DNA from: a virus
Strand: one strand, 5' to 3'
Length of the DNA: 64,000 nt
UHGV virus genome: UHGV-1376965
The translations under genes were made by a program, and so were the position numbers. The notes under the pieces are model-generated. The model saw only the letters and a program-made list of their open reading frames with translations, was not told the origin of the DNA and did not search any database. Shown here piece by piece: positions 15,923-22,247 of this stretch. Numbering within the stretch: the first letter of the stretch is position 1; the number at the start of each line of letters is the position of its first letter.

Positions 15923-16552
15923 ATGAACATACCACCCAGGGCGACTAGGACTGTTTTTTGTGTCGGTAGCGGACCGTCACTCACTCGTGAGGACTGTGCT
16001 GCTATAGAAAAAACTGGCTGTTCAATCATCGCGGTTAACAATTCCTGGCAGATGTTCGATGACATTTATGCCTTATACGCCGGTGATTTGTCATGGTGGA
16101 AGCAATACGGATCCACCATACCGGGAGGGAGATTCCGCAAAGTGACAGCCAACCTGGCGGCGGCGAAATCATTTTCGTTGGAGTACAGGCGATATTGTGG
16201 ACCGGCGGAAGGGGTAAATAGCGGCGCGCAGGCTATCAGTCTGGCTGCTGAATCAGGGGCTGAAGTAGTGGTATTAGTCGGCTATGACTGTTCTCTGCAA
16301 AACGGCCTTCATTGGCATGGCGCGCACCCTCAAGCACTACGGAATCCAACGCAGGTGTCTATTTCAAAATGGCAACAGCAGTTCCTGGATACCCGCAAAA
16401 AACACGCAGATTTACATATTTTGAATGCAAGTAGGAGCAGTGCAATTCAATGTTTCCCAAGAATAAATTTAGAGGCAGTGATCGCGTTATTATCGTCGGC
16501 AGTGGCCCAAGCGCCGCAAACTTTGTTGCGCCGCGCGGAGTGCCGATTATAG
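15923..16552 (+). CDS. MptE-like / DUF115 (motility-accessory-factor-like) protein, paralog 1
   Basis: N-terminal VFCVGSGPSL motif; start placed at ATG 15923 (track ORF begins 15890 at a non-ATG codon). Confidence 0.45.
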   Translation: MNIPPRATRTVFCVGSGPSLTREDCAAIEKTGCSIIAVNNSWQMFDDIYALYAGDLSWWKQYGSTIPGGRFRKVTANLAAAKSFSLEYRRYCGPAEGVNSGAQAISLAAESGAEVVVLVGYDCSLQNGLHWHGAHPQALRNPTQVSISKWQQQFLDTRKKHADLHILNASRSSAIQCFPRINLEAVIALLSSAVAQAPQTLLRRAECRL

Positions 16553-17076
16553 CGGTAAATGGGGCCATCGACTGGCTTAACCGCGCTTCTTATTTTTTCA
16601 CCCTTGATCCATCCCCAGACAATATGCGGCGCGTTGGTCGTGGCCGCCGTCGCCGTGGTGTTTGTTATTGCATGGCACTACCCGATGTTAAAGAACGTGA
16701 AGTCAGAGATGGCGTTCTGTGCTTCCGTCGTGTGGCTGAACGCGGCATGGAGCCAAAAAATACGAATTCTCCCGAGTGGTGGGCGTGGCGCTGGTCCGCA
16801 CATTTCGGCCTTTGCGAAGATGAGAATGAAATTGCCAGCGGCAATAGTGCATATGGTGCTCTGAACCTGGCTTTCCATATCGGATTCAAACATGTAGCTC
16901 TGGTGGGCGTTGACGCTACGCAAGAACTACGCGTTCACTCCGGCGGCACGCCAAAAAATCTAAGTCACCTGCCTTTGTTATTCCAGTCTGCGCGTGAACA
17001 GATTGACGTTGTTTCATGCGGGAAAATGGGAGGTATTCCGCAGATGACTCTTAAAGAATGGCTGAAGAATACATGA
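16450..17076 (+). CDS. MptE-like / DUF115 protein, paralog 2
   Basis: N-terminal [12 protein letters not shown] motif, same family as upstream gene; overlaps it by about 100 nt in another frame. Confidence 0.45.
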
Positions 17077-17750
17077 TGGCACCCACAATTTATCACCGTA
17101 TCGACGGTACCAAATACAGGAATGTCTGGGTTGTTGGTGATCTGCATGGTTGCTACACCAGACTGATGTCCGAACTCCATCGTGTGGATTTTGACCCGGC
17201 GCAGGATTTACTGATATCGGTCGGCGACCTTATCGATCGCGGTACTGAAAATGTCGAATGTCTGGAACTATTGCAGATGCCCTGGTTCAGGGCAGTGATG
17301 GGGAACCATGAGCGGCTGATGATTGATGCGTTAAGTCCAGATGGCAACGTGAATAACTGGCTAATGAATGGCGGACAATGGTTCTTCATGCTGGACACTG
17401 ATCAGGAAATATTAGCCTGGGCGCTGGTGGAGCTGGTAAAGCGTCTGCCCTACATCATTGAGTTGAACACGGGGCAAGAAACTATCGTTATAGCCCATGC
17501 CGACTATCCGGATAATGAATACCAATTCGGTAAGGAGGTGCCGCTTTTCAACGTTGTCTGGGCGCGCGAGCGTATCAGTGATTCGATGGATGATATTGGT
17601 GGCGAAATTTCGGGCGCAGATCGTTTTATCTTTGGTCACACTCCGGTGAAAAGCCCGAAGACATTCTGGAATCAGCAGTATATCGACACTGGTGCCGTAT
17701 TTTGCGGAAACCTGACATTGATGAAAGTGAAAGGTGATGGTGCAGCATGA
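17058..17750 (+). CDS. ppp: Ser/Thr protein phosphatase (lambda PPase family)
   Basis: GDLHGC, GDLIDRG, GNHE, HADYP, GHTP metallophosphatase motifs; collinear with lambda PPase as recalled; true start may be the ATG near 17076. Confidence 0.85.
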
Positions 17751-18448
17751 AGATTGCTTTAGTTTTTCGCTCTGGTGGTGACTATAACGCTTCCGATGTG
17801 CAGTGGCTGGTTAATCAACTGCCAAAAGACTATGAAATTATTTGCCTGACAGACCTGAAGTGTTTACATGTACCTGGCGTCAAAGTTATCCCATTGATCA
17901 ACCAGTGGCAAAAGTGCCGTGGCTGGTGGGCGAAAATCGAGTTGTTCCGACCGGATATAACCGATGATCTGTTCTATCTGGATTTGGACACGGTTATTGC
18001 CGGTGATATACGCCCAATCCTAGAGCATCCACCAACCAGCTTCACCATGCTTAGGGATTTTTACCATCCACAATATCGTGGCAGCGGTGCCCTGTGGATA
18101 CCAAATAGTGTTAAAGCGCATATCTGGAGTTCATTCTGGCAAGATCCGGAAGGTTGGATTTCTCGTTGTGTCACTACTGAGTGCTGGGGTGACCAGGGGT
18201 TCTTACGAAAGGTTATGGGCGATGATACACCAGCATTTCAGGATCTGTATCCAGGATGGTTTGTAAGTTACAAGGCCGATGTTGTGGAACCTGGTTCAAA
18301 ATATGCGAGCGCGCGTTACTCCAGGGGGAATGGGGCATTACCAAAAGACTGCCGAATAATCTTTTTCCACGGCAAACCGCGACCTCGCGAAGTGTCAGAG
18401 GATTGGCTTCCCCTTATCAGCTCATTTTTTGAGCGAGAATCAGAATAA
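17747..18448 (+). CDS. putative nucleotide-sugar transferase-like protein
   Basis: 233 aa; YLDLDTV (DxD-like) motif; weak assignment. Confidence 0.3.
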
Positions 18449-18449
18449 T

Positions 18450-18466
18450 ATTGCTCTAATAATTCC
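18450..18466 (+). promoter_or_regulatory. C1 operator-like site
   Basis: attgctctaataattcc, 14/17. Confidence 0.5.
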
Positions 18467-18498
18467 ATATTTTTAAAACGTGATGTACACTCATCACG

Positions 18499-18515
18499 TT
18501 TTTTATTAGAGCAAT
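18499..18515 (-). promoter_or_regulatory. C1 operator-like site (inverted relative to 18450)
   Basis: ttttattagagcaat matches reverse complement of consensus core. Confidence 0.5.
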
Positions 18516-20591: not shown

Positions 20592-20607
20592 TTGCTCTAA
20601 TAAATCT
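20591..20607 (+). promoter_or_regulatory. C1 operator (attgctctaataaatct)
   Basis: 16/17 match. Confidence 0.6.
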
Positions 20608-20689
20608 TGATTTTTAAAACAGAGAAAGTGAAAATAAAAACATGCCGCAAGGCGCGGCATGTATCCAATCAATCACAGGAGCTGAAAAT

Positions 20690-20776
20690 ATGAACACGGC
20701 ATTCAAAATCATTATGGCCGCGATCTATTTCTGGCTGTTCTCTATCACTTTTGGCGGCATCGTCGCGCATGGGTAA
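20690..20776 (+). CDS. 28-aa hydrophobic peptide
   Basis: ATG with AGGAG SD 8 nt upstream; MNTAFKIIMAAIYFWLFSITFGGIVAHG; below track size cutoff. Confidence 0.3.
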   Translation: MNTAFKIIMAAIYFWLFSITFGGIVAHG

Positions 20777-20786
20777 AGGGGGATGC

Positions 20787-21365
20787 ATGAAAGGCGAAGT
20801 GAAAGAGCGCGGCATGATTTTCAACGATGAGATGGTCCGGGCAATTCTTGGTGGGAATAAAACACAGACTCGCAGGATTGTTGAAGAAAAATTCTATGGA
20901 CGGGCAGTGGCCGTAGAGTTGCTTGCTAAGCATTGTCCATATGGTCAACCGGGCGATCGTATTTGGGTTCGCGAAACCTACCGGGTACATGGCAAAGCGA
21001 CGGACGTCGCAACGCTGGTTTATCGCGCAAGCGTGCGTAACTCCTGGACAGAACAAACGCACCGGGTTCCGGTCGAGGTTTGTAATAAACCAGTATCAGA
21101 AAAGTGGACGCCATCAATTCACATGCCGCGCTGGGCTTCGCGTATTTTGCTGGAAATTACCGACGTGCGTGTGGAACGGCTGCATGACATGAGCGAGGCA
21201 GATGCTAAAGCGGAAGGCGCATCTCCGGCGACGTACAAGATTACACCGCCGGAAGCTGTTTATCGCGTTGGTTTCGGTGATATCTGGCGCGGTATTTACG
21301 GGCAAGAGAACTGGCTATCTAACCCGTGGGTATGGGTAATCGAGTTTAAGCGCATTCAGGAATAA
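20787..21365 (+). CDS. ASCH/PUA-like domain protein (tentative)
   Basis: Start at ATG with AAGGGGGA SD; GGNKTQTRR ... WVRETY pattern suggestive of ASCH-type fold; weak. Confidence 0.35.
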   Translation: MKGEVKERGMIFNDEMVRAILGGNKTQTRRIVEEKFYGRAVAVELLAKHCPYGQPGDRIWVRETYRVHGKATDVATLVYRASVRNSWTEQTHRVPVEVCNKPVSEKWTPSIHMPRWASRILLEITDVRVERLHDMSEADAKAEGASPATYKITPPEAVYRVGFGDIWRGIYGQENWLSNPWVWVIEFKRIQE

Positions 21366-21368
21366 ACC

Positions 21369-22247
21369 GTGAGTATGCATCAAGTTGTCAGCTTTTCAGG
21401 TGGACGAACATCGGCTTATCTCGTTCATCTGATGGAAGCAAAGCGAAAAGCTGGCGCTAGCGTCCATTTCATTTTTATGGATACCGGCTGTGAACATCCT
21501 CTGACGTATCGCTTTATTCGTGAGGTTGTGAAGTTCTGGAACGTACCGCTAACGGTGTTGCAGGTCGATATAAATCCAGAACTTGGGCAGCCAAATGGTT
21601 ATACGGAATGGGAACCAAAGGATATTCAGACGCGAATGCCGGTGCTTAAACCGTTTATGGACATGGTTAAAAAGTACGGTACGCCATACATCGGCGGCGC
21701 GTTCTGTACTGACAGGCTAAAACTCACCCCTTTCACGAAATATTGCGATGACCATTTTGGGCGAGGGAATTACATCACATGGCTGGGTATTCGTGCGGAC
21801 GAACACCGCAGGCTGAAACCGAAACCGGGCGTCCGGTATCTTGCAGAGCTGTCAGATTTTGATAAGTCGGATGTTATCCGGTGGTGGCGAAAACAACCTT
21901 TTGATTTGCAAATCCCGGAGCACCTAGGGAACTGTGTTTTTTGCATCAAAAAGTCAACGCAAAAGCTGGGGCTTGCATGTAAAGACGAACCTGGTCTGAT
22001 GCGGGTTTTTAATGAACTGGTTACAGGTAAACACGTCCGGGATGGTCACCGAAAGACAAATAAAGACGTTATGTACCGTGGTCATCTGAGCCTTGACGGG
22101 ATTGCCAGAATGTATGCCGACAGCGACTACAGAAATTTGTATCAGGCGATGGTGCAAGCCAGGCGATTCGATACCGGCTCGTGTTCAGAGTCATGTGAAA
22201 TCTGGGGTGATCAATTGGAGTTGAAATTCGAAGAGGTGGTGGCATGA
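21369..22247 (+). CDS. pap: PAPS reductase-like (PP-loop ATP pyrophosphatase family) protein
   Basis: SFSGGRTSAY PP-loop motif near N-terminus; Cys cluster NCVFC; same position as P1 pap. Confidence 0.7.
   Translation: MSMHQVVSFSGGRTSAYLVHLMEAKRKAGASVHFIFMDTGCEHPLTYRFIREVVKFWNVPLTVLQVDINPELGQPNGYTEWEPKDIQTRMPVLKPFMDMVKKYGTPYIGGAFCTDRLKLTPFTKYCDDHFGRGNYITWLGIRADEHRRLKPKPGVRYLAELSDFDKSDVIRWWRKQPFDLQIPEHLGNCVFCIKKSTQKLGLACKDEPGLMRVFNELVTGKHVRDGHRKTNKDVMYRGHLSLDGIARMYADSDYRNLYQAMVQARRFDTGSCSESCEIWGDQLELKFEEVVA

Follow-up and report, generated by a model that had tools for sequence, protein, structure and literature searches.

What do the enzyme genes packed into positions 15923-22247 of the virus genome UHGV-1376965 do, and do they act together? 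We analysed this region within a stretch of 64,000 nucleotides of that genome (hereafter, the window). An earlier reading of the sequence, referred to here as the original prediction, had described the region as one contiguous cluster of modification enzymes within the late-gene block. On balance, we favour a composite of independent units: a glycosylation trio (pmgO, pmgP and pmgQ) with a virion protein as acceptor, ppp as an insert, the pmgR–pmgS unit, pap and a swappable accessory cassette.

A P1-like setting

By sequence, the window is a P1-like phage-plasmid, because the region matches both punaviruses and plasmid records. In Megablast, the first 4.9-5.3 kb of 15923-22247 are 98-99% identical to P1, P7, SJ46, RCS47 and other punaviruses. 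A 10-kb query (15000-25000) matched plasmids in 1,290 records, the majority of them E. coli ones, and 47 of the records span at least 80% of the query. Ungapped comparison with P1 gave 283-300 identical bases per 300 from 14700 to ~20700, beyond which similarity collapses. The predicted open reading frames (ORFs) proved real, correctly placed and all on the + strand, and comparison of the gene content with the pmg, ppp and pap annotation of P1 showed that pmgN to pap match P1 and carry its own annotated names. From pmgM to pap, nearly all of 59 P1-like loci from IMG/VR keep the P1 core at 92-100%.

Two diverged Maf-like proteins

The genes pmgO (15890/15923-16552, +; homologues start near the Met at 15923) and pmgP (16450-17076, +) had been read as tandem MptE-like paralogues with a GSGPS motif, a description that held. 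Both translations contain GSGPS. BLASTP between them gave a marginal match (E value 0.003), and profile–profile alignment with hhalign a match of 99.5% probability (E 1.2e-22, 172 columns), on the strength of which we regard them as true but distant paralogues. Their sole Pfam match is MptE-like (PF01973), at 23.4 bits for PmgO and 20.9 bits for PmgP, both under the cut-off of 34.6 bits. The link to this family is therefore provided by their relatives, of which 29 of 31 for PmgO and 35 of 66 for PmgP match MptE-like at E ≤ 0.01, with one relative, P0130, reaching 44.1 bits. The PmgP family yielded 247 representatives. Two PmgP relatives (P0154 and P0159) are fused to S-adenosylmethionine methyltransferase domains.

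Profile searches of the PDB pointed to the sialyltransferases Cst-I and Cst-II of family GT42, which account for all 8 matches of PmgP and 7 of the 12 matches of PmgO (E 0.04-1.2). The alignments fall at two motifs, GxGPS and SG...G.D, and the PmgO fold is shared with Maf, MptE and Cst. The PmgO family keeps D55, S100 and D122 without exception, and the PmgP family likewise keeps D53 and S133, with D155 present in at least 90% of its sequences. The catalytic residues of Maf are E324/D415 in 5mu5 and D272/S334/D357 in CbMaf, the Ser/Asp pair being essential (bioRxiv 10.1101/2020.06.03.131540). In PmgO, S100 and D122 are separated by 22 residues versus 23 in Maf, as measured along the sequence and not by structural superposition. 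We read PmgO and PmgP as Maf/GT42-like transferases (putative glycosyltransferases with a GT42-like fold) whose activity is predicted. The PHROGs database already labels pmgO 'sialyltransferase' and pmgQ 'glycosyltransferase'; among the papers searched, none ties MptE-like/DUF115 proteins to phages.

PmgQ as a GT8-like glycosyltransferase

The protein singled out earlier as a DxD-motif transferase is PmgQ (17747-18448, +), which by profile and predicted fold is a GT8-like GT-A glycosyltransferase. As a single sequence it has no Pfam or NCBIfam match. Across 26 aligned family members, D79-L-D81-T, GDQ (148-150) and HG.PRP (208-213) are invariant, and all 16 PDB matches of the family profile are GT8 proteins, among them the Skp1 alpha-galactosyltransferase 6mw5 (E 1.9e-6), GlyE and glycogenin. 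The DLDT motif aligns to the DAD of 6mw5 and to glycogenin, and the GD.G and C-terminal motifs align too. Foldseek with the AlphaFold2 model, whose predicted local distance difference test score is 94.3, agreed with the profile: all top 50 matches are GT8-type (E 1.7e-8 to 1.3e-6, template modelling score ~0.5-0.6).

A recurrent module, probably for glycosylation, often next to capsid genes

Of the 585 PmgQ loci in IMG/VR, the comparison took in the best 80. Our counts come from 26 phage contigs that fall outside the group closest to P1 (their PmgQ-like proteins are 36-51% identical to PmgQ, and the distant P1 relative L071 is among them) and from 54 PmgQ loci in bacterial genomes, one per species. 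An MptE-like gene or domain is present in 18 of the 26 phage contigs: in 17 of them a PmgO- or PmgP-like gene lies at most ~2.5 kb from the PmgQ-like one, and L089 has the MptE-like domain fused to PmgQ. Elsewhere in the flanks of these 26 contigs, hidden Markov model searches gave no MptE-like match. The bacterial loci, 22 of which have an MptE-like neighbour, range from 31 to 70% GC and come from Gamma-, Alpha- and Betaproteobacteria, Planctomycetota, Bacteroidota and others. Contigs retrieved via PmgO show the same companion genes.

The full trio also occurs in L008, which carries PmgO-like, PmgP-like (56% identity) and PmgQ-like genes, and in L071, where the order pmgM-pmgO-pmgP-pmgQ-pmgR is found without ppp. 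Fusions are of two kinds. In L009, a PmgO~PmgP fusion (7001-8131; P0090, 376 residues) is followed by a PmgQ-like gene, and PmgQ~MptE-like fusions are encoded in L090 (5989-7254, 427 residues) and L089 (1944-3236, 431 residues). Companion genes include FkbM-type or class I methyltransferases lying between the transferase genes, a cupin and another weak GT-A match. Homologues of Ppp, Pap and the ASCH-like and NinC-like proteins described below are absent from every scanned non-P1 module locus.

The surroundings are largely structural. Distant PmgQ homologues (36-43% identity) led to the P0029 contig, where terminase, portal, protease and capsid genes are followed by several others, then by the PmgQ-like and MptE-like genes and the head–tail connectors. 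L005 and L006 resemble this order, with a cement protein directly upstream in L006, plus a cupin and a methyltransferase; connector genes come after the module in the P0029, L005, L006 and P0081 contigs. An HK97-type major capsid gene lies immediately upstream in L005, L074, L078, L085, L087, L088, L103, L105, L107 and L112, and Pfam confirms this neighbour in L074, L078, L085, L087 and L088. The order capsid, MptE-like, PmgQ-like recurs in Onishia, Aidingimonas, Pseudomaricurvus and one Methylophilaceae genome. Loci with PmgQ only are found in structural settings as well, beside a capsid gene and an FkbM methyltransferase (L093), a P2-like terminase and portal (L079), a baseplate (L083) or a tail fibre (L086). 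A collagen-like gene stands directly upstream of the module in L092 (2751-3596) and two genes upstream in the P0081 contig. By analogy with collagen-like surface proteins that are glycosylated, these collagen-repeat proteins are candidates for the glycan acceptor.

From the recurrent co-location, the two kinds of fusion and the sugar-modifying companions, we infer that pmgO, pmgP and pmgQ form a functional phage glycosylation module. Its usual place right after a capsid, cement or collagen-like gene makes a virion protein the most likely acceptor. The modification pathway of the original prediction thus has good support for these three genes, from co-occurrence, fusions and capsid and methyltransferase neighbours, and is not supported for the whole 6 kb. 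The sequence itself and most family labels were already in databases; what appears to be new is a widespread, capsid-linked pmgO/pmgP/pmgQ module across phyla.

In the mechanism we propose, the three proteins would constitute a conserved cytoplasmic module in which a GT8-type DxD transferase joins a pair of Maf/GT42-like transferases of the MptE fold. The module has no sugar-nucleotide synthesis genes and would therefore need host pools. By analogy with their families, PmgQ might transfer a hexose from a uridine diphosphate sugar, and PmgO and PmgP an ulosonic acid, which in E. coli would be 3-deoxy-D-manno-oct-2-ulosonic acid (Kdo) from its cytidine monophosphate form (CMP-Kdo); the particular sugars are our conjecture. 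Maf enzymes O-glycosylate a protein, and CMP-Kdo is usable in E. coli (bioRxiv 10.1101/2020.06.03.131540). The acceptor would be a phage structural protein made in lytic growth, giving a glycan-decorated virion.

Repressor-controlled units divide the region

Two other elements of the original prediction, the late-gene block and the single contiguous cluster, did not survive. The region instead reads as about four transcription units, apparently repressor-controlled, because C1 operators lie at 15733-15749, 18450-18466, 18499-18515 and 20591-20607 and the P1 annotation places predicted sigma-70 promoters at each. A scan of the whole window with up to 3 mismatches to the P1 consensus found 15 operator matches versus 0.4 expected, with a tight cluster at 36657-39257 that presumably marks immunity or replication control regions. 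Our own sigma-70 promoter scan was set aside as evidence, having returned fewer sites (5) than shuffled sequence (11.5).

The first unit, pmgN-pmgO-pmgP-ppp-pmgQ, is controlled by Oppp (Op83; 15733-15749, −), which is identical to the annotated P1 operator and has 4 mismatches to the consensus, hence its escape from the 3-mismatch scan. ATGA overlaps join pmgP to ppp and ppp to pmgQ, as well as the NinC-like gene to its next gene. The opening ORF, pmgN (15793-15948, +), is small, overlaps the pmgO start, is named from the P1 annotation and has no family match. In P1, pmgN was scored essential by CRISPR interference knock-down and its deletion was viable (PMC10695390); simple polarity does not account for this discrepancy, because the genes downstream are all nonessential.

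Next come OpmgRa (18450-18466, +) and OpmgRb (18499-18515, −), found by the operator scan and in the P1 annotation, which together with the pmgR promoter occupy 18450-18515. They precede two genes that had been passed over in the middle of the supposed cluster. The gene pmgR (18530-18748, +; PHROG 3177) is an essential head-completion gene and not an enzyme (PMC9024508). Its neighbour pmgS (18750-20012, +; PHROG 1660) encodes a nonessential coiled-coil protein of 420 residues whose only matches are weak coiled-coil ones (E 1e-4 to 1e-2) to models of SMC, Rad50 and Lamassu LmuB; nothing in those searches matched the C-terminal half (~residues 230-420). The two genes would form a separate unit serving head completion, closed by an intrinsic terminator-like hairpin from the terminator scan (20032-20060, +; 11-bp stem, then a T-run). 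After this strong terminator, pap stands as its own unit, and OpmgT (Op88; 20591-20607, +), annotated in P1 and with 1 mismatch to the consensus, opens the variable accessory cassette.

Upstream of these units, the P1 annotation places a divergent control region at 14793-14842, made up of the late promoter LPpmgL (+), LP26 (−) and the C1 operator O26 (14826-14842, 2 mismatches); positions 14780-14900 are identical to P1 at 121/121. As LPpmgL upstream is 100% conserved relative to P1 and no + strand terminator was seen ahead of pmgN, late read-through from LPpmgL into the units may occur. The P1vir transcriptome paper holds no data for the genes of the region. Between LPpmgL and Oppp lies pmgM (15148-15726, +), named in the P1 annotation, a neighbour outside the module that resembles VRR-NUC nucleases (VRR_NUC 21.3 bits, below the cut-off of 23.8; PHROG 2363 and a Holliday-junction resolvase PHROG). 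Further upstream, the GT-B-like call for dbn (8981-9955, +) is a borderline one: the Glycos_transf_1 match of 25 bits lies just under the cut-off of 26.4, in keeping with a possible GT4-like enzyme and with the P1 note 'possible glycosyltransferase'. It would be the fourth putative glycosyltransferase of this genome.

Two phosphatases

The lambda-type phosphatase of the original prediction is Ppp (17058/17073-17750, +), by profile a binuclear metallophosphatase of the lambda NinI type and not a conserved member of the module. It matches Metallophos at 59.3 bits (cut-off 21.5) and a NinI-like PHROG at 5e-113, contains GDLHG, GDLIDRG and GNHE, and is noted in the P1 annotation as 64% identical to the lambda phosphatase. 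We suggest that ppp was inserted into the pmgO-pmgP-pmgQ operon in the P1 lineage and that the module can do without it.

The HAD phosphatase call was likewise upheld. Pap (20085-20591, +) carries a DIDGT motif, matches HAD_PNKP at 46.7 bits (cut-off 27.6) and, in addition, Pnkp1 (4xrp, E 0.006) and PHROG polynucleotide kinase families. Its 168 residues are filled by the phosphatase domain and hold no P-loop 5'-kinase domain, so the database label '3'-phosphatase, 5'-polynucleotide kinase' overstates the protein. Pap would be a stand-alone HAD enzyme of the polynucleotide-3'-phosphatase type.

A swappable cassette with a NinC-family gene

The genes behind Op88 appear to form a swappable accessory cassette. 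After pap, P1 has pmgT, pmgU and pmgV, P7 has another gene set, and the window has ASCH-like (PmgT-like), NinC-like and Ead/Ea22-like genes. The ASCH call for the first of these (20751/20787-21365, +) stays weak: its 15.8-16.1 bits lie under the 21.2-bit cut-off of Pfam ASCH (PF04266), 3 of 7 relatives match at E ≤ 0.1, and neither the single sequence nor a 7-sequence profile has a PDB match. Kinship with PmgT is clearer, at 44% identity to the first 232 residues of the P1 protein (E 3e-51). P1 PmgT (L001 10864-11793) belongs to the ASCH-like family, with insertions and a C-terminal extension overlapped by pmgU, and upf86.8 of P7 (L002 8864-9445), which RefSeq labels 'DNA primase', is 84% identical to the window protein. 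The family comprises 348 phage records in early or replication regions, at times beside DNA methyltransferase or ParB-like genes. NCBIfam has no match for the ASCH-like protein, PmgO, PmgP, PmgQ or Pap, and the PADLOC defence models have none for these five or for Ppp. Between Op88 and the ASCH-like gene, a hydrophobic ORF of 28 codons (MNTAFKIIMAAIYFWLFSITFGGIVAHG; 20690-20776) falls below the length used for the ORF list, and a hairpin with a 10-bp stem just upstream of it (20640-20662) reads as a minus-strand terminator.

The last gene (21369-22247, +) encodes a PP-loop protein, as predicted, that is not CysH proper. PAPS_reduct, the model for reductases of 3'-phosphoadenosine 5'-phosphosulfate (PAPS), is matched at 36.9 bits (cut-off 22.5) over residues 6-72 only, and the protein contains SFSGGRTS, CVFC (CxxC) and CSESC (CxxxC). 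The N-terminal ~148 residues match SspD (1.4e-13) and DndC (4e-4); the DndC equivalog model gives 17.7 bits against a cut-off of 290. The NCBIfam models for CysH and PAPS reductase give 12.9-21.7 bits against cut-offs of 154-254. The C-terminal catalytic cysteine motif of CysH is ECGLH, which is not present in the translation. With the CysH models far under cut-off and this motif missing, the name 'PAPS reductase' is unsuited to the protein.

Residues 3-287 are instead 80% identical to an ORF between ninB and ninF, the ninC position, in a lambda record. The gene is ~92% identical in nucleotides to one in the early-left region of Shiga toxin (Stx) phages. It occurs in only 2 of the 59 P1-like IMG/VR loci, yet a sizeable group of E. 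coli plasmids has it. Lambda ninC encodes a nonessential PAPS-reductase-family protein, and ninI is nonessential too (PMC10695390). The protein also has 55% identity over 283 residues to the PAPS domain of p0018 from Vibrio phage 44E38.1, and p0018 and p0019, when moved to a sister phage, permitted growth on a Dnd-carrying host (bioRxiv 10.1101/2021.05.05.442762). From this homology and analogy, a NinC-family PP-loop enzyme with a counter-defence role is probable, most likely directed against phosphorothioate-based (Dnd/Ssp-type) immunity. The similarity would also tie lambda NinC to an anti-Dnd determinant, which is a new lead and a concrete hypothesis on the role of this orphan nin gene, long left unexplained in the best-studied phage.

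The neighbouring ORFs include no genes for the partners DndA/IscS, DndD, DndE or SspB/C. A conserved pairing of the ASCH-like and NinC-like genes was ruled out: SPN1S, PMG1, Shpa and X29 have ASCH-like homologues with no PAPS-reductase neighbour, and in Stx phages the NinC-like gene lies beside other neighbours. Vibrio p0019 was rejected as an ASCH homologue (BLASTP E 20, hhalign probability 0.03%). Downstream, 22244-24715 holds three related genes, of which the first is Ead/Ea22-like and adjoins the NinC-like gene via its ATGA overlap. Pfam assigns two of the three to the Ead/Ea22 type (88 and 102 bits). A repeated PATDAFLAE(I/V)RA followed by an aromatic-rich tail is common to the first two genes, and the three look like a paralogue array within the variable cassette.

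Virion protein, host envelope or another substrate

Several observations weigh against the composite reading with its decorated virion. The P1 virion proteome paper makes no mention of glycosylation (PMC9024508). Single deletions or knock-downs of pmgO, pmgP, pmgQ, ppp, pmgS and pap caused no plaque defect, and antirestriction was unchanged in the deletion library (PMC9024508, PMC10695390), so that any function would be conditional. Linkage between glycosyltransferase and structural genes holds for the non-P1 relatives; in P1, as in the window, the module is found between the baseplate/tail operon and pmgR, away from the capsid gene, and the C1 operator and predicted sigma-70 promoter ahead of it point to expression that is early and not late. 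About half of the PmgQ-like loci have no MptE-like neighbour. GT8 enzymes and a faint WaaZ-like hint are equally typical of the assembly of the lipopolysaccharide (LPS) core. A C-terminal acceptor tail was considered for the capsid proteins adjoining the module and dropped, none being evident: their Pfam matches end 2-7 residues from the C-terminus. As to the cassette, the Vibrio evidence concerns a NinC-Dam fusion that was moved along with a second gene, p0019, which has no homologue here.

Given that no P1 glycan has been reported, that the genes are dispensable and C1-controlled, and that GT8 and WaaZ-like enzymes also build the LPS core, the main rival is that PmgO, PmgP and PmgQ remodel a host envelope glycolipid (LPS core, O-antigen or enterobacterial common antigen) during infection, which would block superinfection or the adsorption of progeny to debris. 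We consider this unlikely, although several points speak for it. The P1 receptor is the LPS core. Family GT8 takes in the LPS and lipooligosaccharide enzymes LgtC and WbbM, both among the fold matches of PmgQ; the PmgO~PmgP fusion has a Pfam match to WaaZ_KDO_III, the LPS Kdo III transferase; the three proteins are cytoplasmic, as LPS-core enzymes are; the P1 operon is under C1 and probably early; and the modules of L008 and L009 come after a lysis cassette, where morons are typically located. The WaaZ match is faint, however, and most non-P1 modules sit inside a head–tail structural operon right after a capsid, cement or collagen-like gene, which would be odd for surface conversion. Known seroconversion genes, moreover, lie near the integrase and are expressed in lysogens, where C1 would repress the operon studied here. 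The name of the Pfam family, taken from the archaeal 6-hydroxymethylpterin diphosphokinase, suggests a different chemistry, in which PmgO and PmgP would be MptE- or thiamine-pyrophosphokinase-like diphosphokinases, acting in a cofactor or nucleic-acid modification route to activate the hydroxymethyl group of a small molecule or modified base. That is highly improbable: the only single-family cluster of PDB matches for both profiles is the GT42 sialyltransferases, at GxGPS and SG...G.D; the S100–D122 spacing fits the essential Ser/Asp pair of Maf; the genes that constantly accompany them encode a GT8 glycosyltransferase and methyltransferases of the sugar type; and no base-hydroxymethylating enzyme was seen among the ORFs of 14.5-24.7 kb.

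Comparative data have largely refuted the proposal that all enzymes from pmgO to the PAPS-reductase-like gene, together with dbn, serve one modification pathway, and we now give it very little credence. Its genes share a strand within 6.3 kb, pmgP, ppp and pmgQ are translationally coupled via their ATGA overlaps, and the pmgM-pap core is highly conserved among the P1-like loci. But four operator-bounded units and a terminator split the region, with pap in a unit of its own and the cassette behind its own C1 operator. L071 and all scanned non-P1 module loci do without ppp, and the latter are also free of pap, ASCH and NinC homologues. The post-pap cassette varies among P1, P7 and the window, NinC occurs in few P1-like loci, and in lambdoid phages ninC and ninI lie in nin or early-left regions without any glycosyltransferase. 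For the NinC-like gene, the nearest functional precedent is counter-defence against Dnd and not glycosylation. A narrower proposal, compatible with the composite reading, is that Ppp and Pap act on nucleic-acid ends (2',3'-cyclic or 3'-phosphates) in RNA or DNA end-healing against host nucleases, and not as a protein phosphatase and a sugar-phosphate phosphatase. The PNKP-type matches of Pap favour it, as do weak Ppp matches to TIGR04075 (bacterial Pnkp, 2e-10) and an RNA-ligase PHROG. Keppetipola and Shuman reportedly found in 2007 that the lambda phosphatase is a 2',3'-cyclic phosphodiesterase in vitro. We nevertheless regard such a role as doubtful: the ORFs examined include no partner kinase or ligase, ppp and pap lie in separate transcription units and are both dispensable in the laboratory, and the best matches of Ppp are the protein Ser/Thr phosphatases PrpA and PrpB (272 and 240 bits, under the equivalog cut-offs).

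Returning to glycosylation by pmgO, pmgP and pmgQ, we put forward tentatively a broader claim: that an unrecognised virion-glycosylation module is shared by P1, the classic transducing phage of E. coli, by hundreds of P1-like phage-plasmids and by many unrelated tailed phages whose hosts are Proteobacteria and members of other phyla. This module would place a short glycan, possibly with Kdo, on a capsid-associated protein and would be a Gram-negative counterpart of the mycobacteriophage glycan shield. For 70 years P1 has served as a workhorse phage, and the pmg genes of this region, excepting the essential pmgR, have neither an assigned function nor a laboratory phenotype. If true, the claim would give a reason why dispensable genes stay ~96-100% identical across most P1-like plasmids, would extend phage virion glycosylation beyond actinobacteriophages to coliphages and many other groups, and, since antibody recognition, stability and adsorption could all be affected, would bear on phage therapy and on delivery vectors built from P1.

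Comparison with known systems

The components outside the trio each depart from their better-known relatives. Pap shares the HAD DxDxT motif with the 3'-phosphatase domain of PNKP enzymes (T4 Pnkp type; Pnkp1 4xrp); unlike these, it is a stand-alone protein of 168 residues with no kinase domain or nearby ligase. The NinC-like protein has SFSGGRTS, CVFCIKK and GSCSESCE in common with p0018 of Vibrio phage 44E38.1, in which Dam is fused to the PAPS domain, whereas no such fusion is present here. It resembles DndC and SspD in the N-terminal PP-loop part only. In lambda, ninC and ninI both lie in the nin region; here the NinC-like gene and ppp occupy two operons of a P1-type genome.

PmgO and PmgP are like the Maf flagellin nonulosonic-acid glycosyltransferases (PF01973; 5mu5) and the Campylobacter GT42 enzymes Cst-I and Cst-II in the N-terminal GxGPS and SG...G.D motifs, and like Maf in a conserved acidic residue, Ser and Asp at similar spacing; in both cases the proteins are cytoplasmic. 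Maf has 632 residues with flanking domains, whereas PmgO and PmgP, of ~200 residues, appear to be the catalytic core alone. Unlike Maf and GT42 enzymes, they are a phage-borne pair of diverged paralogues accompanied by a GT8 enzyme. PmgQ in turn has the GT-A fold, DxD and GD(Q/T)G in common with the retaining GT8 enzymes (glycogenin, 6mw5, GlyE and LgtC), several of which glycosylate proteins, and its C-terminal H..G..(K/R)P aligns to their NPKPW region. It is shorter, at 233 residues, only 12-18% identical to them, and its family, as sampled, is confined to phages and prophages.

The closest parallel to the proposed function is virion glycosylation in mycobacteriophages, whose capsids bear phage-encoded glycans (Freeman 2023, as cited in PMC11256854 and PMC13313380). 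According to these two papers, Che8 and other cluster F1 phages encode glycosyltransferases together with methyltransferases, as the module loci here do, and the glycans, thought or shown to be on capsid proteins, are built from host sugar nucleotides. For P1 no glycan has been reported. The mycobacteriophage system is found in phages of Actinobacteria, the module described here in those of Proteobacteria and others. The cluster F1 genes lie near the right genome end (PMC11256854), whereas the pmgO/pmgP/pmgQ-type module is often found right after the capsid gene.

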